IMG/VR virus record: IMGVR_UViG_3300021399_000139
DNA from: an uncultured virus (IMG/VR IMGVR_UViG_3300021399_000139)
Lineage: Duplodnaviria > Heunggongvirae > Uroviricota > Caudoviricetes
Reading direction: 5' to 3' (one strand)
DNA length: 64,000 bases
The translations under genes were made by a program, and so were the position numbers. Shown piece after piece: positions 4,020 to 51,894 of this stretch. A model generated the notes under the pieces. It made no database searches. It saw only the letters and a list, made by a program, of their open reading frames with translations, and was not told the DNA's origin. Position 1 is the stretch's first letter; each line of letters opens with the position of its first letter.

Positions 4020-4051
4020 ACACGCTATAGCACTTTAAAGCTATTAGTGCC

Positions 4052-4300: not shown

Positions 4301-4441
4301 ATTAAACTTTCTTTGCTCTCTATTTCAATATTATTCTACAGCATAGTCTCTATTTTTAAACTCATAGACTAAGGAAAACAACTATTGAAGACAATTTGCA
4401 TTTTTGGTGTAAATAAGTTTAAGAAGAAAGGTAGGTAGGCT

Positions 4442-5131
4442 ATGGCAAGAAGAGCAAGACATTCATCTCTCACTAGACGTGATCTATTGAAGAACATCAT
4501 AGTTGGTGCAGCTACTGGCATTGCTGCCAAAGCATCTATAGGCAACGCAGCTAATGGTGCATTCTATTGGCAGAAGTACACTTTAGCATTGACCATCTAT
4601 GTTCCAAGAGTATACAGCAACTCGTAGTCTCTTGGATATAGAAAGTACCAAAGGCAGCGCATAGTAGGGAAGATGGCAATTGGCTTTGGACAAGACAACA
4701 ACATCATTGACATTTAGTTTTACAATTTGACTAACACTACACACAAATTATAGACTGGACAGCATGTAACATACAAAGGGACTATAGATGAACTAGCACG
4801 TCTTCCTTAGTTCAATGCTATTGGCAACAACAAAACAAACAAATTCAAGACAGCATCAATCTGCTTCTCTCTTGCCGCAGAGCCATCATACAACATTGGT
4901 GAATTTGATGAAGACACATCTCTGTATGTCACATTGGCTGGAAAAGGGACAATCAGCAGCTCAGGTAGAATAAAGACTGCAAGAGGCTATGCTGCTGGCA
5001 CGATTGGCTGTGGCTGTAGAGCATATGGCCACACATCGCCAACTAGAAAAATTGGACGGTATGGTGCAACAAGTGAAGTGACTGACATTGCTTCAGTATA
5101 TGGCACATGGACACTGAGGCAAGACACGTAA
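4442..5131 (+). CDS. 229 aa TAG-recoded protein with twin-arginine-like signal peptide
   Basis: Four in-frame TAGs join track ORFs 4442-4627 and 4934-5131; N-terminus SLTRRDLLKNIIVGAATGIAAKA; GTAAATA at 4409. Confidence 0.8.
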
Positions 5132-5314
5132 TAGCATATTTCTAACAGACTGCTCCCTATGGTGTAGATGCATTGAAAAGGAGATCTCTAGAAGACAATT
5201 GTGTGTATTGCACTCTAGTGTAGATGTAGGGTTCATCGAGACATCTTTGAAGACACAGCCAAACAGCATATCCTCAAACGGCTCCATCTTCCCTGCCTCC
5301 TTCTTAGCCATCTA

Positions 5315-5662
5315 CTAGCATGTCATACTAAAATCAGCTTTGATCGCAGCTGCTTCTGGTGTAAGATGGTAGAATGGATTCACCAGCTTGATCCAGCCAT
5401 CTCTAAGTGGATGGTCTATGCTATGGGCACGGCAGATGTGGATGTTCTTGCTATGGAGAATGTGGTAGAGAAGATCCTCATATGACAAGAATGTGATCAT
5501 CCTAAGATGCCCTGGACTAGAGAGCTCAACATTTGATGCTTGATCTGCATCTTCTCTCAAGCTATTCAATGCCAAGTGGCTACCACAGAAGCTAAAGACT
5601 TTGAGATTGAGAGCATGTGCAATCTTCTGCACTATGTCTGCTGCTGGGCTGTTGTCTATCAT
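5315..5662 (-). CDS. Hypothetical, DL-tag family
   Basis: Ends NPFYHLTPEAAAIKADF; paralog of 5671-6081. Confidence 0.75.
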   Translation of the reverse strand: MIDNSPAADIVQKIAHALNLKVFSFCGSHLALNSLREDADQASNVELSSPGHLRMITFLSYEDLLYHILHSKNIHICRAHSIDHPLRDGWIKLVNPFYHLTPEAAAIKADFSMTC

Positions 5663-5670
5663 GCTTTTCT

Positions 5671-6081
5671 CTATCTTTCTCCTTCTAAGTCAGCTTTGAT
5701 CGCTGCTGCTTCTTTACTGAGACCATAGAATGGGTTGGCAATCTTGCGGACACAGAAACTACCACCAAGACCTTCTTTGATTGGAATGAAGACTGCTTCA
5801 CTGTGCAAAAGGGTGTACAGTAGCTTGTCTATAGAGAAAAATATGTTCAACCTAAGGTGGAGGTCACCATACAACTCAACCAAGCGGCTTCTGTCTATGT
5901 TTTCATCTGTGCACCAGCTCTTCAGTGTGTACCAACCATACAGTGGGTCAAGCTCTACAGACATCTCAAGTGCATGCGTGATCTTGTAGACTATATGCAA
6001 GTCTTGAGACTCATCTTCATTGCTGTTTGCCATATTGCTTTTCTTCATGATTGTATGTAAAGTGTTGAAGCTGGCAATCAC
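5671..6081 (-). CDS. Hypothetical, DL-tag family (true start probably about 6048)
   Basis: Ends NPFYGLSKEAAAIKADL. Confidence 0.75.
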   Translation of the reverse strand: MIASFNTLHTIMKKSNMANSNEDESQDLHIVYKITHALEMSVELDPLYGWYTLKSWCTDENIDRSRLVELYGDLHLRLNIFFSIDKLLYTLLHSEAVFIPIKEGLGGSFCVRKIANPFYGLSKEAAAIKADLEGER

Positions 6082-10398: not shown

Positions 10399-10831
10399 TC
10401 CAGATTCGCCACTTGCCGTCGTGCATCAAATATCTAGACATGTTGTCTAGAAGTTCAGCGCAGAACATTTCTTCGATTTTCGGCAGCATGTCATTTCCAC
10501 CTAGGCTTTGAGCAAACAAGTCTAGAGACATAACGCAGTGCGGCTTAAACCTAATAGGTGACGCGTTATAGAAAGAACTTAGACTCCAAATAGCTATGTC
10601 TCTTTCAGCAGCAACTAGACGTCCTCTTGAGTTTCTAACTTCTTTTAGCACCAAAGAGTTGAATCCACCGTGCATGTATCCAGCCGCGCGTAGCACAGGT
10701 GTGTCGTCTTCTCCGAAGCTCAGGCCAAACATCTTGAACTCTAGGATTTCTGCGAGATGCTCAAGAATGCCGTGTGCATTCTTTGCCGTGGTCTTGATGT
10801 AAAAACCATTTGGTTTCTTTTCTTTGCTCAT
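10322..10831 (-). CDS. Hypothetical, DL-tag family
   Basis: Ends DPWKFAVDVDLLCKEAE. Confidence 0.7.
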   Translation of the reverse strand: MSKEKKPNGFYIKTTAKNAHGILEHLAEILEFKMFGLSFGEDDTPVLRAAGYMHGGFNSLVLKEVRNSRGRLVAAERDIAIWSLSSFYNASPIRFKPHCVMSLDLFAQSLGGNDMLPKIEEMFCAELLDNMSRYLMHDGKWRIWNGFDWCEIDPWKFAVDVDLLCKEAE

Positions 10832-10902
10832 GACGTCTCTACATTGTACTTTTCTGCTCTAGATCTTAAACTTGGCAATTTACGTTGATCTCTAGATTTT
10901 CA

Positions 10903-11211
10903 TCACGCATTCTCATTTAAATCTAGTAGAATCGATATCTCTTCGTCAGATCGACCAAAAAATGGATTTTTAATGGTGTCGCTTTCATCATTAAGCAGTT
11001 GTGTTTCTTTTAGCATGCGTAAAGTGGCTATGTGTATGTCTTCATTAGATTGAATTGCTTTCCTCGCAAGTATGCATCTAGTCTTAGGATTTATAAGAAA
11101 TACTATGTGGGAGGCTATCACTACCTCAAAACCTAGAAATCCAAGCATTCTTTCAATGAGACTTCTACTGCATATCTTCTTCATAAAGACATTATATAAC
11201 CATGTCCACAA
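10903..11211 (-). CDS. Hypothetical, DL-tag family
   Basis: Ends NPFFGRSDEEISILLDL. Confidence 0.7.
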   Translation of the reverse strand: MWTWLYNVFMKKICSRSLIERMLGFLGFEVVIASHIVFLINPKTRCILARKAIQSNEDIHIATLRMLKETQLLNDESDTIKNPFFGRSDEEISILLDLNENA

Positions 11212-11336
11212 AAACTAAATCATTGTTTTCAAGCGCCTTCAAGTCACTACCCTAGGCAATTGACGCGTCTGACTCGAACCTAGTAGTCCATTAAGCAAAA
11301 TACTAGGCGTTTTTGCTTAGTATTCTAGAGTCTTCG

Positions 11337-11633
11337 TCAGCAGACTTCAAATATGACTATTGACCTGTTCTTGCCGGTGAAGAATCCATTGTCTGCTGTA
11401 GCTGACACATTCTTTACATGCAGCTCTGGACACTTGTGCAGAAGAAACTCTTTGATCTTCAGTGCTGCATCTTGCGCTTGGTAGAACCATTCATGATACT
11501 GTACAATCTCATACTTCTGGCTCCAGACATAGACTGCATCTAGGCCATGAGACTTCAAGATGTTGATGACTAGATCTGGGCTCTTAGCTGCATTCTTCGC
11601 TAGAATCTTATTCACTAAAGAATCAATGTTCAT
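11337..11633 (-). CDS. 98 aa paralog in the PspA-like operon
   Basis: N-terminus MNIDSLVNKIL; ATGA-type overlap with the upstream gene. Confidence 0.7.
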   Translation of the reverse strand: MNIDSLVNKILAKNAAKSPDLVINILKSHGLDAVYVWSQKYEIVQYHEWFYQAQDAALKIKEFLLHKCPELHVKNVSATADNGFFTGKNRSIVIFEVC

Positions 11634-25119: not shown

Positions 25120-26523
25120 TCACTCATAGTCATTGTCTGAATGCTTAAGGTGGATCTTTTGGCCCCAATCGCAGAAGTCTTCAGTGCCATCCTTTGTGAT
25201 GACCCAAAGAACAGGAACACCCAAAGGGTTTTTCTTAGGAGCATTGCCATATCCATCAGTCAAATATATGAACACATCACAGCTGATGTTGTTGTCAAGC
25301 ACGTAGTCAAATGCAGGGACAAAAGATGTTCCACCACCTCCTGCCATCTCAAAACCATCATTGTCAATGTCAAGAGGGTCATCTTGTGTATATGTGCTGC
25401 AAGAAGCTACTTCGGCATCTGCACATATTACTGTGAGTTCATACATGCCAAATGAATTTATTAGGCTATTGAGTTCGCCAAGAAACACTGTTCTATCGCT
25501 AGAAGTGCTTCCTGAAGTGTCAATGGCAAGAACTGCCTTAAGGCGCTGAGCCTGCCTGCTTTGGATGTAAAGCCCATTGTGGACATGCCTACGGTTTGGT
25601 GGAATCCATGAACGAGTGCCAGAATTATAGCACCGAGTTACGAACTGGGCTAGAATTTCCTGCCATTTCAGCTGAGGTGTCGTGCACTTCTTGACAAGTT
25701 CTTTTATGTTGCTAGGCAGATTGCCTTTAATCTTCTCGCAGCGCTGAGCTTCGGCAATGATAGTCTCACGCATTTTGTCAGCGAAGTCTTTGGAAATCTT
25801 AGGCTGGTAGTCAGAGTCAAAGCCTATCTTGCCATACTTGTCAGTCATTTCGCCATAGGCACTGCCATCAGCGTCTCCTTTGTCTCCATTACTAGATGCG
25901 GTGCTTTGGCCACCTTTTTGGCTACCCTTTTCGCCATCATAGATGTGCTTGTCAAACTGGCCAGTCAATTCTCCATTTTCATTGCCATTTGACTTGTTCT
26001 GCTTAGAACTAGATGAGCTAGAACCGCTGCCATTTGACATATTCGCATTGCTCTGCTTCTTGTTCTTCTTGTTCTTCAGAAGCATTTCATATATCTCTTC
26101 AGCACATTTTCCTTCTTCTTCTTTAGTAGGAAAGCAGAGGTTTTCAGGAGGGATGAAGCCATCTTTCTTGAGAAGAGCATTGACTTCTTTGTCTGTGGCA
26201 ATGTTGAAGAGTTCTGGATCACGATTCTGCCTGCGGATAAGATGCATCAACACAGCATGCCAAATCTCATGAGCTAGAACAAACTTCTGCTGCTCACGAG
26301 AAAGAGAAGACAGAAATGCAATGTCAAAGAACACTGAGTTGCCATCAGTGCAAGCTGTACGCACTCGAACATCTCGTATAGGCCGCATCTCCATTCTAAG
26401 TGCAATAGAGCCAATGAATGGATATTTAGCAAGTAGATCTCGACGGCAGACAGACAATATCTCCGAAGCCTTCTTCTTAAGGGTCTTTGTCTCTTCGTCT
26501 GTGAGTTCTTTTGCATTAAACAT
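25120..26523 (-). CDS. DUF2201-type metallopeptidase-like + vWA domain protein
   Basis: HEIWH motif; IDTSGS MIDAS; GGGGTSF; YLTDGY. Confidence 0.85.
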   Translation of the reverse strand: MFNAKELTDEETKTLKKKASEILSVCRRDLLAKYPFIGSIALRMEMRPIRDVRVRTACTDGNSVFFDIAFLSSLSREQQKFVLAHEIWHAVLMHLIRRQNRDPELFNIATDKEVNALLKKDGFIPPENLCFPTKEEEGKCAEEIYEMLLKNKKNKKQSNANMSNGSGSSSSSSKQNKSNGNENGELTGQFDKHIYDGEKGSQKGGQSTASSNGDKGDADGSAYGEMTDKYGKIGFDSDYQPKISKDFADKMRETIIAEAQRCEKIKGNLPSNIKELVKKCTTPQLKWQEILAQFVTRCYNSGTRSWIPPNRRHVHNGLYIQSRQAQRLKAVLAIDTSGSTSSDRTVFLGELNSLINSFGMYELTVICADAEVASCSTYTQDDPLDIDNDGFEMAGGGGTSFVPAFDYVLDNNISCDVFIYLTDGYGNAPKKNPLGVPVLWVITKDGTEDFCDWGQKIHLKHSDNDYE

Positions 26524-26605
26524 ATAATAGATCTCCTTTAGCTATTAGTTGGTTTGCATCAAGAATTATATCAAAAAGACTAGAATATGTTAACTCTAGA
26601 CGGCA

Positions 26606-26637
26606 AGCATGGCTAGTGGTCGACCACTAGCCATGCT
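26606..26637 (-). terminator. Perfect palindromic hairpin / terminator
   Basis: AGCATGGCTAGTGG-TCGA-CCACTAGCCATGCT. Confidence 0.65.
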
Positions 26638-26653
26638 TTGGCTACAAGATGTG

Positions 26654-27796
26654 TTAGATCTTCTTGTGCTTTGAGATCAGCGTATTGTAGCGGTCTAGGC
26701 ACTTACGGTAGAGCGGATGGTTGTAGATCTTCTTAGAGTACATCCTATTGTCATCAGAATTAAGGCCATACATAGCACTCTGTATGCACATCATCACAAA
26801 CTCAGGTGGCATTTCAGTAAGGATAGTGAAGAAGCCATTGAGACGCCGATTCTCATCATTTTCATCCTTTCCTCTCCAAAGCATGTAGATAAGCGAAGAG
26901 CACATAGCATAGAGCTGGTCATTCTTCTCAGGAATCTTCACAGGAATCTTTCCATACATCATGTCAAGAATACTGTCAAAGTTCTTGTTGAGGCGGTGGA
27001 ATTCCATAAACTCAACGCCCTTTGCCGGACCAACAAGTCCATATGTGATCTTACGGAGAAGCTGCTCATTGTTTCCATATATCTTGCACATCTGAGACAC
27101 ACGGTCCCAAGAACGAGGGCTTGGCCAACCACGCTCAAGGTTCTCCTTCTCCATGTTGAAGAGATTTTCAGGACGATACTGGATGAAGCCAGTGACAGAA
27201 GGATGGATGTTGTTTGTGATAGCCCACTTGATCCACTGTTCAGAGTCAGCCTCAAGCTCAACATGGAGAAAGCGGTTAGACAGTGCCGAAGACATTGTCA
27301 TTGCAACAGCACGGTCAGTTGTGAGGTTGCCAGCTGACACAATGTACCACCCACTGGGCACTTTGTAGAAGTCACCAATTTTACGGTCAAGAATGAGCTC
27401 ATATGCAGCAACCTGGCAAGACTTGTCGCAAGATGTGATCTCGTCAAGGAAGATGATTCCCTTAGACTTAGGGTCACGCGGCCAAAAGTCAGGAGCATTC
27501 CACTTCATGACGCCTTTGTCCTTGTCGACAGAAGGAAGACCACGGATGTCAACAGACTCCATCTCAGCAAGACGCACATCAACAAAGCCAATGTCAAGCT
27601 TTTCTGCTACACGCCGCACGATAGAAGACTTGCCAATGCCAGGAGATGAGTGGATAAGAATAGGCGGAATAGTCATAGCCAATTCAGGGTTTTCGATGAT
27701 GAGCTGGCAGTTTGTGCGAAGAATCTCTTCAAGCTCATCCATAGTCATGCGGTTGTGTGTATCAATCGCTGTTGCATCGTCATTTCTTGTAGCCAT
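26654..27796 (-). CDS. MoxR-like AAA+ ATPase
   Basis: SPGIGKS Walker A, IIFLDE Walker B, ALSNRF, SPRSW. Confidence 0.88.
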   Translation of the reverse strand: MATRNDDATAIDTHNRMTMDELEEILRTNCQLIIENPELAMTIPPILIHSSPGIGKSSIVRRVAEKLDIGFVDVRLAEMESVDIRGLPSVDKDKGVMKWNAPDFWPRDPKSKGIIFLDEITSCDKSCQVAAYELILDRKIGDFYKVPSGWYIVSAGNLTTDRAVAMTMSSALSNRFLHVELEADSEQWIKWAITNNIHPSVTGFIQYRPENLFNMEKENLERGWPSPRSWDRVSQMCKIYGNNEQLLRKITYGLVGPAKGVEFMEFHRLNKNFDSILDMMYGKIPVKIPEKNDQLYAMCSSLIYMLWRGKDENDENRRLNGFFTILTEMPPEFVMMCIQSAMYGLNSDDNRMYSKKIYNHPLYRKCLDRYNTLISKHKKI

Positions 27797-28585: not shown

Positions 28586-29749
28586 TCATTCCTTGTATCC
28601 AAGATGCTTCAGCAGCTTGTCAGTTGGACAAGTCATGAAGAAGTCCCTAGCTGACTTGATCTTGCCATCAAGCAAGCCAAATGCAATTCCTGGCATCTTG
28701 AAGTTCTTTGTTATCCAGAGAGCCTTGTCTTTGCGAGTTGGAAGAGAAGCATCGATTTTCAAGTAGTCGCTCCATGCCTTCTCAGTGTCTTCAACAAACT
28801 TCCAGAACCGAGCTTTGCACTCTTCAAGAGCAGGACGGAACTCCTCAAAGTACTCGCATATCTCTTCTATCTCATTTGTGCGGACAAGCTCAATTGCACG
28901 AGCATATGACATCACACCATTTCCTTTGAGATGGTGCGCAGCGACATATGATGGAGACTTCACCTTCACTCTGTTGAACTTGCTGTCGCAGACAACATAG
29001 CCTTCTTCATCCCATGGCATTGCTTTTGTAGCAGCAAGGCACTCGTCAATTGACTTCAGAGGAAAGACCTTTGGAGTGTCAAAGATCTTTGAGAAGACAG
29101 GGTCATCTGTGAAGTAAGTCTCCTCAAAAGTCTCATTGTTGCGCTTTCCAAGGAAGTAGAGCTTGTTCTCTTTGTGAGGCACAACTACACGAGTCCATGG
29201 CGAGCAAAGCTCAAACATGTATGTATAGCCTTCTTCCCAAAGAGCACATAGTCCTTCCTCTTGTAGCTTCTTCTGCCAGCCAGACTTCTCAAGGACTACA
29301 TCAAGCTGCTCAGCGACAATGTCTCCAAAGAATTGGTACTTGCAGCCAATCTGCTCTGCAATAGGTGCCTTAGAAGCAAGAATAGTCCCATTAGTAGAGA
29401 CAAGAAGGTTGTCTCCAACATTCACAATCTTAATCAAACTTCCGTCGATTTTTTCTCCGCAGCGAGCAGTTGACCAGTCAATCTTTGGGCAATAGCTCTC
29501 TCCCCAATTTCCAAATTTTGTAAATGGAAATGAGACAATCTCATTAGTGTCTTCATTGAGAATCAGCCCACGGCACTCACGCACAATAGGAAGACTAAAG
29601 TCCGAATCTATCTGGCTATATTTAAGCATCAAGAGATTCATGCCATTCCACTGCTCTCTTGACATAGTCAAGCAGTAAGGCTTCTCAGACAGCAGCTTCT
29701 CCCAGTCAGAATGCTGCTCTATGAAATACTGTACATTAAGTTTCTTCAT
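28586..29749 (-). CDS. T4 Rnl1-like RNA ligase
   Basis: ECRG, PFTKFGN, EKIDGSLI, FEL, EGYVV, RVKVK motifs. Confidence 0.9.
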   Translation of the reverse strand: MKKLNVQYFIEQHSDWEKLLSEKPYCLTMSREQWNGMNLLMLKYSQIDSDFSLPIVRECRGLILNEDTNEIVSFPFTKFGNWGESYCPKIDWSTARCGEKIDGSLIKIVNVGDNLLVSTNGTILASKAPIAEQIGCKYQFFGDIVAEQLDVVLEKSGWQKKLQEEGLCALWEEGYTYMFELCSPWTRVVVPHKENKLYFLGKRNNETFEETYFTDDPVFSKIFDTPKVFPLKSIDECLAATKAMPWDEEGYVVCDSKFNRVKVKSPSYVAAHHLKGNGVMSYARAIELVRTNEIEEICEYFEEFRPALEECKARFWKFVEDTEKAWSDYLKIDASLPTRKDKALWITKNFKMPGIAFGLLDGKIKSARDFFMTCPTDKLLKHLGYKE

Positions 29750-29781
29750 GCTACAAATTATATCAAATTTCTAGACTGTTG

Positions 29782-30120
29782 TTAACTCTGCTGCTTTAAG
29801 TCTTTCTCGATTTTCAAGATTTCTAGAGACTTTCCATACAGCGGATTTGGTTGTGCATCTCGAGGATATGTGCCATAGCAGATCTCCTTTGCCTTGAACA
29901 ATGTGTCCACTAAGTCATCTAGAGAGTCAAAGTTGATCTTGTACATCTGTTGCTCTCGGTTGACAAATGCATACTGCCATGACTCATAGTCTTTGTTGAG
30001 AGCTTTGTTCAAGATTGTCTTGAATGGAACCATGACAAAACCGCGTGCCATGTTCCGGATGATCATGCTTGGCATTCCATTATAGCTCAATGCCATAAAT
30101 GCATCTGAAATAGGTGTCAT
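29782..30120 (-). CDS. Hypothetical, DL-tag family
   Basis: NPLYGKSLEILKIEKDL. Confidence 0.75.
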   Translation of the reverse strand: MTPISDAFMALSYNGMPSMIIRNMARGFVMVPFKTILNKALNKDYESWQYAFVNREQQMYKINFDSLDDLVDTLFKAKEICYGTYPRDAQPNPLYGKSLEILKIEKDLKQQS

Positions 30121-30398
30121 AGATTGAGATAGTCATGGATCTTTGTGAACACTGGATATTTGGAGTAGATCTTTCTTGGACTAGTCGTGCATTGCGTATC
30201 GCGCTCAATGAGGTCCTTCATGTATGCATTAGCTTCATCAAAAGTCTTGTATGCAATCCGCTGCGAGTTTACTTCAGGACAAGGATGCGTCTTGCATATA
30301 TATCTCCAACCATGCCACCAGTCGCCCATCTGTGGCATGAACCAGACACTGCCATCATCATAGTGCTTCTCTAGAACGCGGTATTTGTGTTTCATCAC
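30117..30398 (-). CDS. Hypothetical protein
   Basis: Coupled ORF. Confidence 0.7.
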   Translation of the reverse strand: MMKHKYRVLEKHYDDGSVWFMPQMGDWWHGWRYICKTHPCPEVNSQRIAYKTFDEANAYMKDLIERDTQCTTSPRKIYSKYPVFTKIHDYLNL

Positions 30399-30403
30399 TT
30401 AGC

Positions 30404-30657
30404 CTCCAATGACAATCTTCCTTGCTTGCTCTTAATAGTCTCCACCGGTGTCACGTCTGCCTGCATCACTTCATCCTAGACAGGGCGACTGCTACGCAAT
30501 ACACTAGAAATAGCACGTGGATTGCAGAGCTCCATGGCAAGCCAGCCTCTATCGTCTTCTCCACTGCACACGATGCAATACCTATCCCTATAAGGGGCAG
30601 TAGCCTGTTTAGTTCTCGTATCATCTCATTCTCCAATGACAATCTTCCTTGCTTGCT
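30404..30657. repeat. 27 bp direct repeat flanking a 200 bp insert
   Basis: CTCCAATGACAATCTTCCTTGCTTGCT at 30404-30430 and 30631-30657. Confidence 0.9.
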
Positions 30658-31843
30658 TGGCGGTCTCAGTGGCAATGAACTTACCAGCAAATTCACCAAG
30701 CTGCTTGACAACTTCGGATTCTTCTTTCAAGCAGTCGTCAAAGCAACGTTTTGGAAGCTGCTTCATCACTGCACCCATGTCTTTAGGCTGCAGCTCAACT
30801 GGGACTAAGCCTTCATCGACAAGCTTGAGGATGAGCTTGCGGACACGAGCTTCAGTCACAATGCTAGCAGCAAGCTTTGCAGCTTCAGCTTTTGCAGCTT
30901 CAGCTTCAGGATCAAGCGGCTTCTTCTCCTTCTTGGAGTGCTGAGACTCTTTGAAGCGCTCGTTCACAATCTTCAAGTAAGCTGGTGCCTTGTTGTTCTC
31001 ATTGTTAAGCTTGCTCTGGTTTTTGATGACGATTCCCTCTTGCTCAGGGCCATAAGCAGTAGATTTGTTCAAGAAACTTCTGCAGTGGTCCCAACTGATG
31101 AATGGCCCATAGTAGAGCTCTTCGATGTACTCAAGGCCGAGCTGCTTGCAGATATTCTTGACTGAGGACTGCAGCAAGTAGCTGCCAAGGCGCTTATCCC
31201 AGATATCATAGACTCGCCACTTGTTATACCATTCGGAATTATATGTCACCGAGTGTTTGACGCACCATTCGCCAAAGAATACGAGATCGAACAACTGGCT
31301 CCAGTCGGTCTTAGGCTCGACTTCAGTCTTGACATAGTCATAGAATCCACGCAGTGCTCCAGGCTGGTCTAGCAAGTTTGTGCGAGAGAATACCTCAAGC
31401 TTACCAGTCGTCTCGTCCCAAGCAATTGAAGCGTTGGCACCATCAATCTTAGTCGTGATCTGGATGATATCTCCAAGCTCAAAAGCTCCAGTGTTCTTAG
31501 GCCTAATAGCATTAGTGCCATCTTCTTTCTTGCCAATGACAAGGTCCTCTTCACGGATGTAGTCGATGTCAATGAACTTCTTCTGGACAGGCTCAAGCTC
31601 ATCTGCCTTGAACCAGCAGTTGCCATCATCACCAGCAAACTTGACTTTTGCATACCAAGTCATCTTTGGCTCAAGACCATCTACATATGCCTGCTTTAGC
31701 TGCTCTTTGTCGACAAGTGGATTGATTGACTTGCCATCGATGTCGACCTTAAGCTCTGTGACGACTCCACGCTGCCCATAGCCAATGCAGTCTTTGCGTA
31801 CTACCTTTACTTCAGTCTTCTCTTGGAAGTTTGGTCTCTTCAT
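30626..31843 (-). CDS. Rnl2-family RNA ligase
   Basis: TKIDGAN motif I, FGEW, YDI, EGIVIK, KIVNERFKE. Confidence 0.88.
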   Translation of the reverse strand: MKRPNFQEKTEVKVVRKDCIGYGQRGVVTELKVDIDGKSINPLVDKEQLKQAYVDGLEPKMTWYAKVKFAGDDGNCWFKADELEPVQKKFIDIDYIREEDLVIGKKEDGTNAIRPKNTGAFELGDIIQITTKIDGANASIAWDETTGKLEVFSRTNLLDQPGALRGFYDYVKTEVEPKTDWSQLFDLVFFGEWCVKHSVTYNSEWYNKWRVYDIWDKRLGSYLLQSSVKNICKQLGLEYIEELYYGPFISWDHCRSFLNKSTAYGPEQEGIVIKNQSKLNNENNKAPAYLKIVNERFKESQHSKKEKKPLDPEAEAAKAEAAKLAASIVTEARVRKLILKLVDEGLVPVELQPKDMGAVMKQLPKRCFDDCLKEESEVVKQLGEFAGKFIATETAKQARKIVIGE

Positions 31844-37569: not shown

Positions 37570-38013
37570 TCAGTGAATACGTTTAATGAGATAGTTCAAA
37601 TTTGATGGAAGATCATTGCTTAGATTAAGCTTTATGATAGCTTCATAGACGTCTTCTCCTTCAGCAATGTTCGTATAGTATTCATCATACCCCACAAGTC
37701 CATATTTATAGCATTTGGCATCTATTTCTGCAATTTCTTGAACAGTTGCTAATCTATTATAGCCAGCAAGACAGTGTCTTATAGGATATGAAAAACTGAA
37801 TCTTAAACTTAGTGCTCTAACATTACGTCCCCATCGACGATCTAGCAAGGCAATAGATTCAAGTTTGAATGGATATCCATTGTATTGGTGCTGTTTCCAA
37901 AAATAGTTTCCATTTGTAGATCGATGTTTCAAAGCAAAGTCTATGAACTCTCTAGGAAGCTGCTCGACCTTTGTAGAAGTCATAATCTCAATGTCATCGA
38001 CTAGTAGTTTCAT
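37570..38013 (-). CDS. Hypothetical, DL-tag-like
   Basis: EDVYEAIIKLNL. Confidence 0.7.
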   Translation of the reverse strand: MKLLVDDIEIMTSTKVEQLPREFIDFALKHRSTNGNYFWKQHQYNGYPFKLESIALLDRRWGRNVRALSLRFSFSYPIRHCLAGYNRLATVQEIAEIDAKCYKYGLVGYDEYYTNIAEGEDVYEAIIKLNLSNDLPSNLNYLIKRIH

Positions 38014-38073
38014 ACAACTTAACTATATCAAAAGATATGTGCTATGTTAACCATTGATAGTTGATAGCTTAAA

Positions 38074-38436
38074 TGGTGGACTCGCCGGGAGTCGAACCCG
38101 GGTCTTGCTCAGTCTTTCATGCAACTCATTCACATGCTTAGCTTGCTTAAAGTATGATCAGTCGCAAGCAGCAAGCGGCTTACGCAATCGAGCTTTGGAA
38201 GGATGACTAACCTCAAGCGCCCTTCCACCTTGAGGACGTTGTGCTATGTAGATTAAGCCAGACAAGATACTTGCACATGACCTCTCTTGTCCAACTGCTG
38301 TCTTATAGATTCAAAGAATCAAGCAGCGATCGCATAGTCTGCGTCATTTATTGTTTTTGCATGTTTTAAAGAAGACATACTCTTCTGCATGTATCATCAC
38401 CTTATAGATTCTGCCAATCGATACCGTTACGAGCCC
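38074..38436 (-). ncRNA. ssrA: tmRNA
   Basis: GGGCUCG/CGAGUCC-ACCA acceptor stem with G3:U70; T arm CCGGG-UUCGACU-CCCGG; AUAAAU followed by tag ORF DADYAIAA-UGA. Confidence 0.93.
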
Positions 38437-38442
38437 TTAAAA

Positions 38443-38652
38443 TCACTTCTTAGCCTTACGTCCCTTCTTTGGAGTAGGAATTATGCTTAGACTTGCAATG
38501 CTTAAAGCATCAAGCGTGCTATCATTCTTCTTGAACATTGCAGTCATGAAAGTCTCAAACTTTCGCGCTGCATCAAACATTGTATTAGCTTTTGTATGGA
38601 ATGTCTTTGGCCTACCATCTGAACAGACATATGCAAATGTATAGTCTTGCAT
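38443..38652 (-). CDS. Small hypothetical protein within the RNA island
   Basis: AAGGA RBS, MQDYTFAYVC. Confidence 0.6.
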   Translation of the reverse strand: MQDYTFAYVCSDGRPKTFHTKANTMFDAARKFETFMTAMFKKNDSTLDALSIASLSIIPTPKKGRKAKK

Positions 38653-38679
38653 TTTGTTTTCCTTATTTTGTTGTTTTAA

Positions 38680-38766
38680 TGGTCGAGCTGACTGGAGTCG
38701 AACCAGCATGGTTATACAACCGTCTCCTTAGAAGGGAGGTGCCTTATCCATTCGGCGCACAGCTCG
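38680..38766 (-). tRNA. tRNA-Arg(UCU) with long variable arm
   Basis: CGAGCUG/CAGCUCG-ACCA; loop CU-UCU-AA; A20. Confidence 0.85.
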
Positions 38767-38822
38767 TTGTTTAAATACGAAATTAAATATATCAAATATT
38801 TTCAATTTTGTTAACTTCAAGC

Positions 38823-38897
38823 TGGTGCTGAGTCGTAGAATCGAACTACGATCTTAGGCTTATGAAACCCATAGTTTTCCACTTAGCTTAACCCAGC
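38823..38897 (-). tRNA. tRNA-CAU (Met or Ile2)
   Basis: GCUGGGU/ACUCAGC-ACCA; UU-CAU-AA. Confidence 0.85.
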
Positions 38898-38905
38898 AAA
38901 ATAGA

Positions 38906-39019
38906 CAAGACACATTTTAGACTGGACTCGAACCAGCATCTCCCGAATTATCAGTTCGGCGTTCTACCATTGAACTACATGCCCGAAGCGTGGACACAGA
39001 TTTTTGCTGTTAGTGTCTT
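38906..39019 (-). ncRNA. Wrapper RNA W1 carrying a permuted tRNA-Ile(GAU)-like body
   Basis: AAGACAC-UAACAGCAA...GUGUCUUG enclosing an acceptor hairpin and D, anticodon and T arms. Confidence 0.75.
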
Positions 39020-39167
39020 AGAAAGGATGAGGTGATTATTCTGACTTTTACGGCAACTGTCTGGTATATGCTGAAGCATTCTGTACAAAACAACATCAGC
39101 CTTACAGACATAAACTACACCCCGGAGTTGTTGTCTTCTGCTAGCTGATATCAAGGCTAGCATTAAA

Positions 39168-39582
39168 ATGGTTGAAGGCGCAATAAATGCTATTTGGGAC
39201 TTTTACCCCACCGTACAGCATAATGCAGAGCCCTTAGTCGACACTATCTATTACCGCATAATGCTGCATATCCAGAACCTCCTTATCTGGCAGTGTTGTC
39301 TGCTCTACATCGATTTAGAGCATTGAAATCAACACGACTCATTTTGCATACACCGCTGCTCTGCTGTACGCGGTTCCTGTGAGCGTGACTTGCTGTTAGA
39401 GCCGTAAAAGGAAGCAGAGTCCCCGATGCGGACTTTTACCGCTACCTATATCCAGACAGGCGAATATTTTTTACCTGACACCTTCTCTCGCTCGGGACTC
39501 GTCTCCACCTGCGCAACTAGCTCATGGAACTAGGTCGGATGGTACTCTGCATTTGTACACGAGAGCTTGCTTCTGTTCGAAC
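39168..39582 (-). ncRNA. Unknown structured RNA of about 410 nt with an embedded wrapper motif
   Basis: Noncoding, many helices, two GGUAAAAGUCC hairpins, 3' ACCA. Confidence 0.45.
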
Positions 39583-39586
39583 ATGA

Positions 39587-39666
39587 TGGAGCACGAGACC
39601 GGACTCGAACCGGCAAATTTGCCACATTGGAAGTGTGGTGAGTTGACCAATTCCTCTCACTCGTGC
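39587..39666 (-). tRNA. tRNA-Gly(UCC)
   Basis: GCACGAG/CUCGUGC-UCCA; CU-UCC-AA. Confidence 0.92.
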
Positions 39667-39671
39667 AAAAA

Positions 39672-39835
39672 CAAGACGCAAGATTTACATTGTTCTTTAC
39701 TGTCTTCAACATAGAAAAAAGACGAGCTCAATTCACAAGGTTTGAACTTGCAGTATGGCAGAGCATTACCATTTCATTGATTCATTTTGAGTGAATTATG
39801 TTTACCGATTGTTTGACTTTGCAGTATTGCGTCTT
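39672..39835 (-). ncRNA. Wrapper RNA W2
   Basis: AAGACGC-AAUACUGCAA...GCGUCUUG; internal T-arm-like hairpin. Confidence 0.65.
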
Positions 39836-40109
39836 TAAAAACAAAAATTCGCAGTGCCACCTCCACTTTTATTGTGTGAATCATTGGGACGAGAATAAGT
39901 TTCATGTCATTTCGCTCGTCGTTACCTGGGTTGTTGCGAATAATATCATCTCATCCGACTGAGACCTAGTGGAACAGGTTTCGCAGGACTTCCCACAACT
40001 ATTTGTATTTCCACAATATCCCATTGTGTTTCGGGTATGCACCATTACTGGCTGCCGTTGAAGCATTAAGCACACTGAGTTTGACTCCTCATCTGAGATG
40101 ACAGAGTTT

Positions 40110-40184
40110 TGGAGCTACCTGAAGTACTCGCAACTCCGTATTCCGTCTTACAAGGACGGCGCCTAACTTCTCAGCCAAGGTAGC
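40110..40184 (-). tRNA. tRNA-Thr(UGU)
   Basis: GCUACCU/AGGUAGC-UCCA; CU-UGU-AA. Confidence 0.88.
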
Positions 40185-40195
40185 AATTAAAAAGT

Positions 40196-40327
40196 CAAGA
40201 CACATGTTTTCTGTCAATTGCTCTAAGCATCTGAGCTACAGGCGAAATCATCACGTGGTTCGCCTGGAGGGACTCCAACCATCGACCCATTGATTACCCA
40301 TTTAGATGTATTTGCTGCTAGTGTCTT
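40196..40327 (-). ncRNA. Wrapper RNA W3 with circularly permuted tRNA
   Basis: 3' half (T arm, CAGGCGA-ACCA) precedes 5' half (UCGCCUG, D arm, AUUGA). Confidence 0.8.
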
Positions 40328-40336
40328 TAAAAGAAA

Positions 40337-40429
40337 CAAGACCCGTATATTTGTGGGAATTGAACCCACTCGTTTTAGTTTTGTAAAAACTAATTCTTAA
40401 TCCATAAGTAGATTGCAGTTACGGGTCTT
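40337..40429 (-). ncRNA. Wrapper RNA W4 (anticodon arm UAC + T arm)
   Basis: AAGACCCG-UAACUGCAA...CGGGUCUUG. Confidence 0.7.
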
Positions 40430-40435
40430 TCAAAG

Positions 40436-40509
40436 TCAGTCTGGTCGGATTTGAACCGACGTGGACCTCAGCCCAAGTGAGGTGGGAAACCAGGCTCCCC
40501 AACAGACTG
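40436..40509 (-). tRNA. tRNA-Pro(UGG), CCA not encoded
   Basis: CAGUCUG/CAGACUG-A; CU-UGG-GC. Confidence 0.9.
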
Positions 40510-40525
40510 TAAATCTTCAAATCAT

Positions 40526-40585
40526 CAAGACGCGTTTAACTTTCGAATTTAACAGATTCGGGGTTTAAGTTGCTGTATGCGTCTT
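40526..40585 (-). ncRNA. Wrapper RNA W5 (anticodon stem-loop GUU only)
   Basis: Internal CGAAU-CUGUUAA-AUUCG. Confidence 0.7.
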
Positions 40586-40590
40586 TCAAA

Positions 40591-40668
40591 TGGTGGACCT
40601 AAGGAGCTACGATCTCCTCGCCTCCTGAATGCAAATCAGGCGCTCTACCAATAATGAGCTATAGGCCC
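40591..40668 (-). tRNA. tRNA-Ala(UGC)
   Basis: GGGCCUA/UAGGUCC-ACCA with G3:U70. Confidence 0.92.
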
Positions 40669-40722
40669 ATAAGAACTTCATGATAACTATTCATAACTTT
40701 TAATTATCATGAAGTTTAAACA

Positions 40723-40857
40723 CTAGATGCATTTTTGCATTACAGTCGCGTCTTCCACCTTCCGCCATATCCCACATTTAAGCAGGATAGCTGGACTCGA
40801 ACCAGCACGTCTTTATAGACAACTGTTCCCATTAGCATATATTGCTGTTAGCATCTA
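40723..40857 (-). ncRNA. Wrapper RNA W6 with permuted Leu-type tRNA
   Basis: Variable arm, T arm, UAUCCUGC-loop-GUGGGAUA, then D arm UGGCGGAA...GACGC. Confidence 0.8.
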
Positions 40858-40859
40858 AA

Positions 40860-40934
40860 TGGCTCATCAGGCTGGACTCGAACCAGCAGTCGCTCGGTTA
40901 ACAGCCGAGTGCTTCACCGTTAAGCTACTGATGA
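40860..40934 (-). tRNA. tRNA-Asn(GUU)
   Basis: UCAUCAG/CUGAUGA-GCCA. Confidence 0.92.
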
Positions 40935-40944
40935 ATAAATCAAA

Positions 40945-41091
40945 CAAGACACGCTGATGCTCTTTTTGTATGTAAGCATCAGATCACCAAGCTCACATTT
41001 TAAGCCATTGGAGCTTTTGATGGCCGATAGTCCTTTGCTATCTTGTTTTGTGTTTTTATGATCTAATTTAACTTTGCAGTTGACGTGTCTT
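40945..41091 (-). ncRNA. Wrapper RNA W7
   Basis: AAGACACG-UCAACUGCAA...CGUGUCUUG. Confidence 0.65.
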
Positions 41092-41602: not shown

Positions 41603-41697
41603 GTCCACGCTAATCTACCATCAATGCATTGTCTGCTGCATTTAAGATAGACAGCCGCTCGGAGCTTGAGGACCTGTTTAACGACGCTCCGACGTCT
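41603..41697 (-). ncRNA. Pistol self-cleaving ribozyme
   Basis: P1 GACG/CGUC; loop UCGGAG pseudoknots with CUCCGA; UUAAACAG; P2 GUCC/GGAC; GCG; P3; GU cleavage site. Confidence 0.85.
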
Positions 41698-45659: not shown

Positions 45660-45911
45660 ATTTGTTCCGTAGCGCACTATAGATACTGTGCACTACCGCG
45701 TTTGGCCTAAAAACCTGTTTTTTCGTCGCCAAACCGACGGGCAAAAGCTCTCAACTTCTGCCAGAGGCTCACAACCTCTCTTAGTCTTACTCACTAGTCT
45801 GTCAAGTAAGACTGCCATCAACTATAAATGTCAAAGATCAAATTCAACAGCGTTCTGCTGTTGGTAGCAATTATATCAAGTTTTTTCGAGTTTGTTAACT
45901 ACTTTGTCAAG

Positions 45912-50319: not shown

Positions 50320-51894
50320 TTAAATAAGATTCTTTATTGCATCCTCAACAGGCTGATATCGTTCAACATTCAACGCTTCAACAAGAACTTCATATGGATC
50401 AGTCTTGTTTGACATAAGCATCTTGAACTGTGTCTGACTGAAGCCAGAACAAAGAACAACACCATTTTCATTCTGCTGAAGTGGAATAGTTCCAGTTCTA
50501 GAATTGACATTCCAGAATATGATTCGTGGAAACTTATATCCAGCCGCTTCCCATTTCTGACGAATTCTCTCAAACAATGCATTCTTTGAAGCAGAGTAGT
50601 CTGAAGGTCTGTTCCAATAAGAATATCCTCCACCAAAATCAATTGCAGAATTGAACTCCATGTCACTGATTATGCAAAGATCTGGAATGTCTTCTTGCTT
50701 AAGATGATTGCGAACAGACGTCTCAAGCATAAGATCCATTACTGCCTCAATGTTTGTGCTAGCACACTCATCATGCTGATAAGTGATGTTCAGCTTCTCA
50801 GCAAGAGACTTTGCATTGCTGAAGTCAACATACTGAGGATGATCAGAGAAAGTAATGTACTTGTTTTTGAATGGACCAGTCAAATGCTCAGAACAATAGA
50901 TTCCAAGCGCATTGCAGACCTCAAGTGCTGTCATTTTAGAATGTGGATCAACTTGTGTTGTCATGCTTCCACTTCCATCGCAACAGCAAATAAGACTACC
51001 ATTAATCTTTACTTCAGGCAATGCCTTCCACATAGCTTCAAGCGCAGCATCAGCAGTGATTTGAGAACGACGCCAACCAAAATTGCCATTCTTGCTGTAT
51101 GCATGGACGATGTCGCATGGGAAGTTTGCTGAAGAGTTGATCTTAGCTTCACCATTCTTCAAGGCATCAAGAAATGCGCGGCGGCGGGTCTCATCATTAC
51201 GGAGAAATGCAGCATTGTACTTGATGTTTGCCTTCGAAGGAACAGCTTCATAGTCAATCTCACTCCACTGCTTTGCAGACATCTTGACCTCAATGACCTT
51301 CAAGTAAGCACGAAGCTTTGCCAAAGTCTTGCGGTACTGCCTGTCGGTCATCTCAAGTGCAGATGCAAGCTTGTGAGCAAGTGCACGAGATGCAGCAGAA
51401 GAAGTGTTGATTGAGGGAAGCCACTTTGCCAAAAGTGTCACTGGCTTGCCTTCATCATATGCCTGAAGATCTGCAGTGAGCTTGTCACCGATGTATCCAA
51501 CAACATCATTCCACAGAGAAGTTCCATCAAGAACAAAGAGATCATCCTCACGTCCATATTCTGCAACAAGAGGAATAAGCTTCTTCACAAGCTCTGGACG
51601 AGTGTTAGCAAGCCACTTAAAGCAGATGCGGAAAGAACGACGCTCGCCCATGCCGTTGCCGCGGATGTCGCGAAGCATGAACATCCACTTAAGAGCAAGA
51701 AGAGCATTGAAGTAGAATGCATCTGAGAACATCTTCTCAACTTCTGAGTCAGACTTACTGCGAAGTGAAGACACTGCAAAGTTGATGTCAAGAAGTGGAT
51801 TTCCTGCTGTCTTGAATCCTACAGCTCCATTCTCGGTCACCGAGACTTCGTCATTCATTGTTGCCTTAAGGGCACTCTCGAACTTACTAGACAT
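50320..51894 (-). CDS. DUF2828 helical domain + vWA protein (Ro60/TROVE-like architecture)
   Basis: TENGA, RDIRG..GER, YGREDDL, AKWLPS, DGSGSM MIDAS, ISDMEF, IFWNV. Confidence 0.8.
   Translation of the reverse strand: MSSKFESALKATMNDEVSVTENGAVGFKTAGNPLLDINFAVSSLRSKSDSEVEKMFSDAFYFNALLALKWMFMLRDIRGNGMGERRSFRICFKWLANTRPELVKKLIPLVAEYGREDDLFVLDGTSLWNDVVGYIGDKLTADLQAYDEGKPVTLLAKWLPSINTSSAASRALAHKLASALEMTDRQYRKTLAKLRAYLKVIEVKMSAKQWSEIDYEAVPSKANIKYNAAFLRNDETRRRAFLDALKNGEAKINSSANFPCDIVHAYSKNGNFGWRRSQITADAALEAMWKALPEVKINGSLICCCDGSGSMTTQVDPHSKMTALEVCNALGIYCSEHLTGPFKNKYITFSDHPQYVDFSNAKSLAEKLNITYQHDECASTNIEAVMDLMLETSVRNHLKQEDIPDLCIISDMEFNSAIDFGGGYSYWNRPSDYSASKNALFERIRQKWEAAGYKFPRIIFWNVNSRTGTIPLQQNENGVVLCSGFSQTQFKMLMSNKTDPYEVLVEALNVERYQPVEDAIKNLI

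Follow-up and report, generated by a model that had tools for sequence, protein, structure and literature searches.

A permuted, closed-acceptor tRNA-like element in an uncultured phage as a candidate Y-RNA-like mimic

The tRNA array of the uncultured phage analysed here contains, at positions 38906..39019 of the minus strand, an element (W1) that has the arms of a tRNA but carries the 3' strand of its acceptor stem ahead of all of them. This raises the question of whether W1 is a broken tRNA gene, a permuted gene for a working tRNA, or an RNA that imitates a tRNA for another purpose. All positions refer to the window, that is, the whole 64,000-nucleotide stretch of DNA. By its DNA runs, the window derives from an animal gut metagenome. 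The array lies between 38000 and 46000, in a part of the window where every gene and RNA is on the minus strand, and comprises a tmRNA, 11 tRNAs called by ARAGORN (9 of the 11 with encoded CCA ends), more Rfam tRNA matches and a Pistol ribozyme. We consider W1 to be probably, though by no means certainly, a functional Y-RNA-like tRNA mimic, a third permutation beside those of YrlA and Yrn1, and not a broken tRNA.

Table 1. Parts of W1, other features of the window, and the elements that share the closed acceptor
Feature	Position	Strand	Basis or remark
Outer (wrapper) helix, 5' strand AAGACAC	39013..39019	-	7/7 pairs with 38913-38907
Stretch UAACAGCAAAAAUC, joining AAGACAC to UGUGUCC	between 39013 and 38998	-	sequence
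Single-stranded ACAGCAA, within the bulge that follows AAGACAC	39004..39010	-	conserved motif
Acceptor 3' strand placed upstream, UGUGUCC	38992..38998	-	7/7 pairs with GGGCAUG, three of them G-U
Acceptor loop ACGCUUC (A73-like base, CGC, UUC)	38985..38991	-	CGC stands at the CCA site of relatives
Acceptor 5' strand GGGCAUG	38978..38984	-	pairs with upstream UGUGUCC
U8 A9 and D arm GUUC-AAUGGUA-GAAC (arm 38975-38961)	38961..38977	-	Rfam tRNA alignment
Anticodon arm CCGAA-CUGAUAA-UUCGG (GAU at 38952-38950)	38943..38959	-	Rfam tRNA alignment
Variable stretch GAGAU	between anticodon and T arms	-	sequence
T arm GCUGG-UUCGAGU-CCAGU	38921..38937	-	Rfam tRNA alignment
Linker CUAAAAU, outer 3' strand GUGUCUU (38913-38907) and conserved G (38906)	38906..38920	-	sequence
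U-rich tail UCUAUUUU, reaching the tRNA-Met 5' end (38897)	38898..38905	-	ARAGORN tRNA-Met 38823-38897
One-piece tmRNA	38074-38436	-	array member
Wrapper copy	49124-49071	-	repeat and pairing scan
Wrapper copy, YrlA-type cargo	45144-45009	-	Rfam YrlA 38.4 bits, below gathering
Wrapper copy	41597-41547	-	repeat and pairing scan
Wrapper copy	41091-40946	-	repeat and pairing scan
Wrapper copy	40585-40527	-	repeat and pairing scan
Wrapper copy	40429-40338	-	repeat and pairing scan
Wrapper copy, YrlA-type cargo	40327-40197	-	Rfam YrlA 29.2 bits, below gathering
Wrapper copy	39835-39673	-	repeat and pairing scan
Wrapper copy	39405-39334	-	repeat and pairing scan
DUF2828 and DUF7788 protein, 524 aa, presumed partner	50320..51894	-	Pfam; AF2; Foldseek
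Rnl1-like RNA ligase	28586-29749		Pfam
Rnl2-like RNA ligase	30626-31843		Pfam
Closed-acceptor set			W1, L158, L073, L125, L162, L128, L061, L117, L047
Closed-acceptor set, continued			L194, L075, L135, L142, L124, L052, L160, L067

A preliminary description had delimited W1 exactly. Its observations that the D, anticodon (CUGAUAA) and T arms are intact and in tRNA order, and that the acceptor 3' strand is placed upstream and closed with GGGCAUG, are both confirmed on the minus strand (39019-38906). The upstream strand forms 7/7 pairs with GGGCAUG, compared with 2/7 for the 7 nt that follow the T stem. Bases of the usual tertiary contacts can also be read from the sequence (U8, A14, G18G19, U33, the UUCGA T-loop and A15:U48). 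The Rfam tRNA model (RF00005) matches 38920-38978 on the minus strand with 50.8 bits (gathering threshold 29); model positions 1-6 and 65-71 are unmatched, and the acceptor stem is missing from the match because this is limited to positions 7-64 of 71. ARAGORN made no tRNA call at W1, and the next tRNA, a tRNA-Met, starts eight nt past its end. Having no ordinary acceptor stem, W1 is not a tRNA. Its 5' and 3' ends pair in a terminal stem, inside which lies a tRNA-like domain whose acceptor is a closed stem-loop, as in YrlA. It scores 18.9 bits with the Rfam YrlA model (RF02553; gathering threshold 69), and the motif GNCGAAN0-1G is absent from 39025-38999, ACAGCAA standing in its place; by score and by motif alike, W1 lies outside Rfam YrlA.

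The minimum free energy structure of W1 given by RNAfold includes the outer stem, the D, anticodon and T arms and 4/7 pairs of the acceptor hairpin. Its z-score is only -0.61 (45/200 shuffles fold equally well), and therefore folding energy alone does not beat chance; support for the structure beyond chance is, as far as sequences can tell, comparative and comes from the model score and from covarying relatives. An RNA run of the same sample (X14; contigs, which cannot show ends) covered the tmRNA and several stretches, W1 not being among them, and in X19 (contigs) the contig of a relative covers 38902-38980 and diverges on both sides. A 62-aa open reading frame (38975-39163, minus strand) overlaps the 5' half of W1. 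Its sequence resembles a spurious reading of RNA-coding DNA. A promoter-like site at 39063-39035 (minus strand) is weak, two being found where shuffled sequences gave a mean of 2.8, and is not above expectation.

The missing acceptor stem in the Rfam match, the lack of an ARAGORN call and a fold energy no better than that of shuffles would all suit a decayed tRNA-Ile pseudogene that had lost its 3' acceptor strand and had acquired the upstream complement and the outer stem by chance. By our own arithmetic, a 7/7 complement (G-U allowed) arises 3-15 nt upstream with a chance of about 0.01. The relatives of W1 bear directly on this reading. The window itself is without a close relative in INPHARED or IMG/VR: megablast of positions 38000-41000 gave no match in INPHARED, an exact 42-nt string of W1 had 0 matches in IMG/VR, and the Rnl2-like protein and a 147-aa ORF, used as queries, found no related loci in IMG/VR. 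Blastn of 38800-39200 retrieved tRNA bodies only; tRNA-Ile of phAPEC8-type phages matched at 79% across 63 nt. A search with AAGACACTARCAGCAAA returned 44 IMG/VR loci, 25 of which carry GTGTCTT 56-122 nt downstream by manual count. A pattern describing the W1 layout (ACAGCAA, 60-90 nt, T loop, 8-20 nt, RTCTTG) matched at 47 loci in IMG/VR and at no fewer than 118 in metagenomes, with DNA for 80.

Among the matches listed, the outer helix has at least 6/7 pairs in 97 of 122 distinct parsed sequences; the remaining 25 resemble chance matches on ordinary tRNAs. Six of the 97 (L098, L100, L113, L134, L145 and L171) were rejected as ordinary tRNA-Met genes, their 5' strand being GAGAGGC and not of the AAGA type. 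One of the matches listed, L130, lies on a second contig and is identical to W1. ARAGORN called a tRNA in 29 of 39 non-redundant IMG/VR elements, through an AU-rich, often mismatched downstream strand; these 29 have an open acceptor end to which the wrapper is joined, as in Yrn1, and many also have an upstream complement. A closed acceptor with no usable downstream strand is found in 17 elements among the matches listed, W1 included (Table 1), and in 6/17 a tRNA begins 4-8 nt downstream.

We built a covariance model (R1) on the topology of W1 and aligned the matches to it. In 114 matches from 89 sources, part of them retrieved with a pattern already requiring ACAGCAA, the T loop and RTCTTG, 94.4% of the positions are paired, compared with 67.9% after shuffling (0/500 shuffles reach this value). 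The outer helix is 98.7% paired over 109 distinct family rows, with 6/7 pairs changing on both sides. The 17 closed-acceptor elements are 93.4% paired (72.0% shuffled, 0/500 reaching it), and only 31-52% with slid partners. Their individual helices in alignment A5, which like A4 was fitted to the model so that the structure is favoured, are paired at 98.3% (outer helix), 87.5% (acceptor hairpin, helix 2), 100% (D), 88.1% (anticodon) and 94.1% (T; n=17). For L075, L135, L158 and L162, which have odd anticodon arms, the register comes from the model-based alignment and not from the block parser. ACAGCAA is invariant in alignments A3 and A5, the motif itself being part of the search pattern.

The acceptor strands differ widely between elements, from UGUGUCC/GGGCAUG in W1 to UGUUCGC/GCGGAUG (L075), UUUUUCC/GGGAAAA (L125), UUCUGCU/AGCAGAG (L124) and UAUCUCC/GGGGAUA (L194), and a pair of elements such as L047 and L061 differs on both sides of a pair (UUAGGCG/CGCCUCA versus UUAGGCA/UGCCUCG). 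An alternative pairing of GGGCAUG with a downstream UGUGUCU, after a 6-nt insert, was rejected: L128 keeps the hairpin of W1, and its downstream strand is GCAUCUU, in an outer helix that differs from that of W1 (AAGAUGC/GCAUCUU). With 17 elements and covarying helices, the permuted closed-acceptor layout is real and conserved. Nor are the homologs plain decayed tRNAs: the upstream strand is kept in 17/17 with compensatory changes, and when they were checked for covariation, as the preliminary description had proposed, 6/7 pairs of the acceptor hairpin proved to be changed on both sides. A pseudogene would hardly share its topology with 16 more elements whose hairpin and outer helix both carry compensatory changes, nor have an identical copy in L130, nor would its wrapper motif be conserved in gut phages and equally in FelixO1 and a Bacillus phage; we regard decay as extremely improbable.

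The wrapper is not confined to W1. Repeat finding and a pairing scan located ten copies in the array, all of them minus-strand (Table 1), with the consensus 5'-AAGAYNC, 2-5 nt, C(A/U)GCAA ... GNRUCUU-G-3' and a paired outer helix, which W1 fits. The outer helices show compensatory changes between copies (AAGACAC/GUGUCUU, AAGAUCC/GGAUCUU, AAGACGC/GCGUCUU, AAGACCC/GGGUCUU, ACGGCUC/GAGUCGU and others), and 8/10 contain ACAGCAA, two having CUGCAA. Within the window, the cargo ranges from a small hairpin or a lone T arm to the YrlA layout (T arm, closed acceptor, D arm) and the cloverleaf of W1, which is the only full one among the ten copies (R1 score 111.6 bits; others 26-40). Together with the ordinary-acceptor cloverleaf of other phages, these cargos show the wrapper to be a portable module, in support of the earlier suggestion that it can be grafted at different positions of the cloverleaf.

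The wrapper, a 7-bp terminal helix (5'-AAGAYNC/GNRUCUU-G-3') with ACAGCAA, would be the counterpart of the terminal stem of Y RNAs. YrlA (RF02553), as described in PMC4201824, resembles W1 in its terminal stem, T arm, D arm, closed acceptor and location near a Ro60-type gene, and the copies at 45144-45009 and 40327-40197 have exactly the YrlA layout. YrlA, however, ends at the anticodon position, has no anticodon arm and runs in the order T, acceptor, D, whereas W1 has all four, the acceptor first and then the D, anticodon and T arms, and its ends leave at the T/acceptor junction. The terminal modules differ as well, with ACAGCAA in W1 and GNCGAAN0-1G in YrlA; the latter motif, near the 5' end, is the presumed Rsr site of bacterial Y RNAs according to the same source (PMC4201824). 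Yrn1 of D. radiodurans is described there with D-loop features, an 'anticodon arm', a T arm and a Ro-binding stem at its ends. Its terminal stem replaces the acceptor stem, as in the ordinary-acceptor members of our family, whereas W1 adds a closed acceptor hairpin. The cargo of W1 would thus be a complete tRNA-shaped fold, derived from tRNA-Ile(GAU), in a circularly permuted chain whose ends leave at the T-stem/acceptor junction (65/66) and whose loop-closed acceptor has the 3' strand first. To the two known layouts of tRNA-mimicking Y RNAs, YrlA and Yrn1, W1 would add a third, a four-arm cloverleaf permuted at the T/acceptor junction, on a compact terminal module (AAGAYNC/GNRUCUU-G plus ACAGCAA) that is apparently undescribed and that carries very different cargos within one phage. 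Neither the module nor the permutation was found described in Rfam or in the literature searched, which did not extend to Burroughs and Aravind 2016 (PMC5062991).

What may become of the closed acceptor is indicated by its loop. Reading the 17 elements by hand, we found N73-CCA directly after the upstream strand in 8/17 (L158, L128, L125, L194, L075, L135, L142 and L124). The linker that comes next, 2-12 nt long, shows free variation in length and sequence: A-CCA-UUC in L128 and L158, U-CCA-UCAUU in L075, G-CCA-UCAUU in L135, A-CCA-UU in L125, G-CCA-ACAAUU in L124, A-CCA-ACAAAUUA in L194 and G-CCA-AAAUCCGUCCGU in L142. The other 9/17 lack an exact CCA, five having CCU or CCC and four neither. 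The two YrlA-type copies of the window also carry it, as CAUCCUC-G-CCA-GAAAU-GAGGAUG (45144-45009) and GGCGA-A-CCA-...-UCGCC (40327-40197). W1 has A-CGC-UUC where L128 and L158, its closest relatives among the matches listed, have ACCAUUC between identical stem strands, and appears on this comparison to have lost the encoded CCA. That CCA is kept while the stems have turned over completely and the linkers differ argues for selection; alternatively, the CCA could be in decay and left over from tandem tRNAs at the origin of the family, since nine of the 17 elements, W1 among them, are without an exact CCA. As far as sequence goes, the acceptor loop is laid out as in permuted genes for tRNA or tmRNA; it would also be expected at the junction of tandem tRNA genes.

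The simplest reason for a kept CCA, suggested by analogy, is that RNase P recognises and opens the loop, followed by 3' trimming. In M. smegmatis YrlA, the closed 7-bp 'acceptor stem' is cut by RNase P and CCA is added in vivo (Chen et al. 2014, PMC4201824), and for permuted tRNA genes RNase P is proposed to open the acceptor loop together with a 3' nuclease (PMC3978253). The N73-CCA in 8/17 relatives and in the two YrlA-type copies makes doubtful the preliminary view that such a mimic has no free 3' end and cannot be charged. Five copies in the window stop 6-17 nt ahead of a tRNA by manual reading and are therefore probably released by RNase P acting on that tRNA. W1 would likewise probably be cut from a polycistronic transcript by RNase P at the downstream tRNA-Met, and the N73-CCA-linker loop of the family would probably be opened by RNase P with 3' trimming. 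The product would be a tRNA mimic in two pieces, joined by the acceptor and wrapper helices and exposing a free CCA end; W1 itself, with CGC, would need the CCA-adding enzyme of the host or remain closed. In two-piece tmRNA, the acceptor piece with the CCA comes first in the gene, and base pairs hold the two pieces together once the loop is gone; the N73-CCA loops predict a comparable conversion by RNase P to two-piece tRNA mimics. This two-piece (permuted) tmRNA offers a bacterial precedent for a permuted tRNA-like gene (PMC3978253), with the difference that tmRNA is charged and acts on the ribosome, whereas nothing suggests either for W1.

The preliminary description had taken W1 for an anticodon decoy, an RNA whose acceptor loop stays closed, which is not charged, and which draws host anticodon nucleases directed against tRNA-Ile(GAU). 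W1 alone would suit this role, with its canonical CUGAUAA loop on a 5-bp stem and an acceptor loop without encoded CCA, and the RNA-repair genes in the window (Rnl1-like and Rnl2-like) would be in keeping with a conflict in which tRNAs are cleaved. Among close relatives, no part varies more than the anticodon arm, as expected under an arms race or under no pressure. Within the family, however, a canonical 7-nt anticodon loop was read by hand in only 3/17 elements (W1 and L073, both CUGAUAA, and L160); the anticodon helix is kept in the 17 and the loop is not conserved. L158 and L117, which lie 4 nt upstream of a tRNA-Met, as W1 does at 8 nt, and share its wrapper and T arm, have loops of 3 nt and 11 nt, respectively. 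Since most relatives have non-canonical loops, a family-wide anticodon decoy is therefore unlikely, and a loop that is never opened would leave the N73-CCA in 8/17 without explanation. The decoy claim is weakened accordingly, and we think it unlikely for W1. The variable anticodon arm sits in an otherwise conserved scaffold.

The order of the parts, with the 3' part first, also recalls the permuted tRNA genes known from one archaeon and from algae such as Cyanidioschyzon merolae (PMC3978253). In UGUGUCC-ACGCUUC-GGGCAUG, the 3' part stands ahead of the 5' part with an intervening sequence, as in the definition of Soma-type genes. These genes share with W1 an acceptor closed into a loop by the intervening sequence and the pairing of leader with trailer, and the known order of leader, 3' strand (with N73, and CCA in relatives), loop, 5' part and trailer is that of W1 (PMC3978253). 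W1 might then be a true permuted tRNA-Ile gene, its wrapper serving as a BHB-like excision signal: after a cut at 65/66, an Rnl1- or Rnl2-like phage ligase would seal the nick in the stacked T/acceptor helix, and RNase P, 3' trimming and CCA addition would open the acceptor loop to give a linear tRNA-Ile(GAU). Two RNA ligases are encoded 7-10 kb away, no ordinary tRNA-Ile(GAU) is found among the 11 ARAGORN tRNAs of the window, and the inner helix abuts the 65/66 junction exactly in L075 and L073. W1 also has A73 and GAU, which we take to be identity elements for IleRS. If this were true, the product would be a working tRNA-Ile(GAU), otherwise missing from the array, and W1 and L073 would be the first circularly permuted tRNA genes outside algae and archaea, a 2014 account having them in algae and one archaeon only (PMC3978253).

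Several features speak against such a gene. The algal and archaeal genes, as described in PMC3978253, depend on a BHB motif, a splicing endonuclease and ligation, passing through a circular intermediate to a normal tRNA. The W1 family differs from these Soma-type genes in showing no evident BHB, in a cargo that is mostly non-decoding and in that ligation is not indicated. Read by hand, the leader and trailer of W1 show no 3-nt bulge / 4-bp helix / 3-nt bulge, nor does W1 have an inner helix that would define the cut sites. No endonuclease candidate was identified, and no joined form was seen, in contigs that do not cover W1. In 14/17 relatives the anticodon loop is non-canonical and could not decode, and the same wrapper surrounds cargo that is not a tRNA. 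We therefore hold a permuted gene for a working tRNA to be very improbable, and return to the reading of W1 as a Y-RNA-like mimic.

A Y-RNA-like mimic calls for a Ro-type partner, and a candidate is encoded 11 kb from W1 (Table 1). The AlphaFold (AF2) model of the 50320-51894 product has a mean pLDDT of 75.4. In a Foldseek search of the PDB with this predicted model, the 11 top-ranked matches are all Ro60/TROVE proteins, over the full length, and include Ro60 of the Thermus phage phiLo (E 6.6e-7), the best structural match, D. radiodurans Rsr, and human and Xenopus Ro60. A sequence search of the PDB with the same protein gave 0 matches, and Pfam TROVE did not match it; the literature found on DUF2828 consists of unrelated plant and animal papers. 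The family is large, with more than 7,400 matches at E <= 1e-10 among 8,000 candidates scored. It occurs in 708 INPHARED records, some of them annotated 'Ro-like RNA binding protein'.

Wrapper and protein are also linked in other genomes. A minimal wrapper hairpin stands directly before the start of a DUF2828 gene in 12 IMG/VR loci (Pfam checked on 2), and the W1-type element L075 lies directly upstream of a DUF2828 gene. PF11443 was found in 8/10 contigs with wrapped tRNA-like elements, the two lacking it being 37% and 66% complete, compared with 1/5 contigs with chance motif matches and 0/14 control genomes. ACAGCAA also occurs in FelixO1 and in Bacillus phage PK-3, found independently of the search pattern. 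FelixO1 has four wrappers between its first tRNAs, right after the Ro-like gene, in the variant form AGAAGACCnnUUACAGCAA...nnGGUCUGG, and one copy has YrlA-type cargo. The wrappers of PK-3 (AAAGACAC-AYACAGCAA...GUGUCUUG) are as in the window and are grouped within 3 kb ahead of the DUF2828 gene. A search of three whole cultured phage genomes (FelixO1, Fnu1 and PK-3) gave no W1-type element; the best full-length score, 56.7 bits, belongs to a short wrapper with an ordinary tRNA. The module thus recurs beside Ro60-like genes in phages of Gram-positive and Gram-negative hosts, culturable ones included. Judged by this linkage, the wrapper most likely docks W1 on the phage Ro60-like protein, and the mimic would present the shape of a tRNA to tRNA-binding enzymes on a Ro-like platform, with possible roles in RNA repair, quality control or counter-defence. 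That an RNase P step alone turns the RNA into a two-piece, CCA-ended tRNA mimic on a Ro-like ring is a tentative proposal, about which we are somewhat more doubtful than about the mimic itself.

Phage Ro60-like proteins have been placed beside small RNAs before. In phage phiLo, the Ro60 gene is accompanied by Yrl1 and Yrl2, small RNAs that were picked by their CGAA motif and are not tRNA-shaped as described (PMC12135203). Bas63 (PMC11482910) and Listeria phage CKA15 (PMC12282133) combine a Ro60-type protein with small RNAs or a tRNA array, and the passages of the two reports that concern them define no RNA motif or structure. In the Bas63 study, some of the annotated tRNAs were guessed to be Y RNAs, and gp130 is reported to counter the ppl defence (PMC11482910). 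The wrapped RNAs offer a concrete candidate for phage Ro60-like proteins whose partners were only guessed, Bas63 gp130 (PMC11482910) for example. The set of neighbouring genes fits RNA repair or counter-defence, by comparison with jumbo phages (PMC7824862). Two metallophosphoesterases, a MoxR-type AAA ATPase and a DUF2201 metallopeptidase/VWA protein are also encoded nearby. Finally, a degenerate copy of the wrapper (GACAU-UGACAGCAA...-AUGUC, 51930-51886) takes in the start codon of the Ro60-like gene.

The wrapper module, an outer 7-bp helix with a single-stranded ACAGCAA bulge, is not confined to W1, the permuted tRNA-Ile(GAU)-like RNA; nine more copies, all on the minus strand and with differing cargos, are found in the window. 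The cargos include hairpins, one lone T arm, YrlA-type tRNA-like domains with N73-CCA loops (two of the nine copies) and long inserts of ~145 and ~160 nt (likewise two of the nine). The same module is present in cultured phages, between or before tRNA genes and adjoining a Ro-like gene, and the wrapper stretches of FelixO1 and PK-3 carry no annotation in their records.

Among the AU-rich wrapped 'tRNAs', close IMG/VR relatives (L050 versus L070/L076/L080; L063/L068) differ by single-base indels in the anticodon loop, with a 7-nt CUGUUAA versus an 8-nt CUUGUUAA, and a 6-nt loop is seen too. Since loop length varies among such close relatives, sequence comparison argues against a decoding role for these RNAs. 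In L005, a 155-kb IMG/VR contig, tRNA-like genes lie ~70-260 nt past the wrapper; their acceptor ends are ordinary and an inside-out wrapper replaces the anticodon region (..GAAUCUUG-UAUG-AAGAUUUGCACAGCAAC..), which is another mode of joining wrapper module and cloverleaf.

A degenerate wrapper, GACAU-UGACAGCAAAAUAAAGGAAAAACAAAU-AUGUC, occupies window 51930-51886 (-), and the Ro60-like gene has its start codon within the 3' strand of this element. The element reaches only 16.7 bits (E 0.11) with R1, the covariance model of the W1 topology. The Ro60-like protein might control its own translation.

Coordinates of wrapper copies and other elements
Feature	Position	Strand
Wrapper copy, window	49124-49071	-
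Wrapper copy, window	45144-45009	-
Wrapper copy, window	41597-41547	-
Wrapper copy, window	41091-40946	-
Wrapper copy, window	40585-40527	-
Wrapper copy, window	40429-40338	-
Wrapper copy, window	40327-40197	-
Wrapper copy, window	39835-39673	-
Wrapper copy, window	39405-39334	-
Wrapper module, Salmonella phage FelixO1 (L215)	10709-10775, 10876-10940, 11330-11403, 11416-11545	
Wrapper module, Bacillus phage PK-3 (L217)	3300-5883	
Promoter-like units, window	38816-38785, 41796-41767, 42544-42513, 43093-43064	-
Promoter-like units, window	44099-44068, 45900-45869, 46629-46600, 38061-38021	-
57-aa ORF, window	39902-40075	-

The tRNA array of the window has further features. A promoter-like repeat, GTTAACA-N-GATATAAT, stands upstream of tRNAs and small ORFs, and two Pistol ribozyme matches lie at 45663-45739 (-) and 41631-41697 (-); one, at 38.6 bits, exceeds the gathering score of 34.5, and the other, at 32.8, falls slightly short of it. 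The unannotated stretch 39862-40097, between a wrapper and tRNA-Thr, contains the 57-aa ORF and is matched exactly by contigs of the RNA libraries X14 and X8. Adjoining the phage tmRNA (38074-38436), a tRNA of the amber suppressor type at 38680-38766 (-) carries a CUA anticodon together with a long variable arm (ARAGORN label Pyl); TAG may be a sense codon in this phage.

Elsewhere in the window, a TnpB-like ORF (OrfB_IS605 and Cas12f1-like TNB domain) is located at the start, 1800-2690 (+). A MoxR-type AAA ATPase and a DUF2201 metallopeptidase/VWA protein (25120-27796 (-)) adjoin Rnl1-like and Rnl2-like RNA ligases (28586-31843 (-)), and these genes together look like an RNA-repair or counter-defence set.
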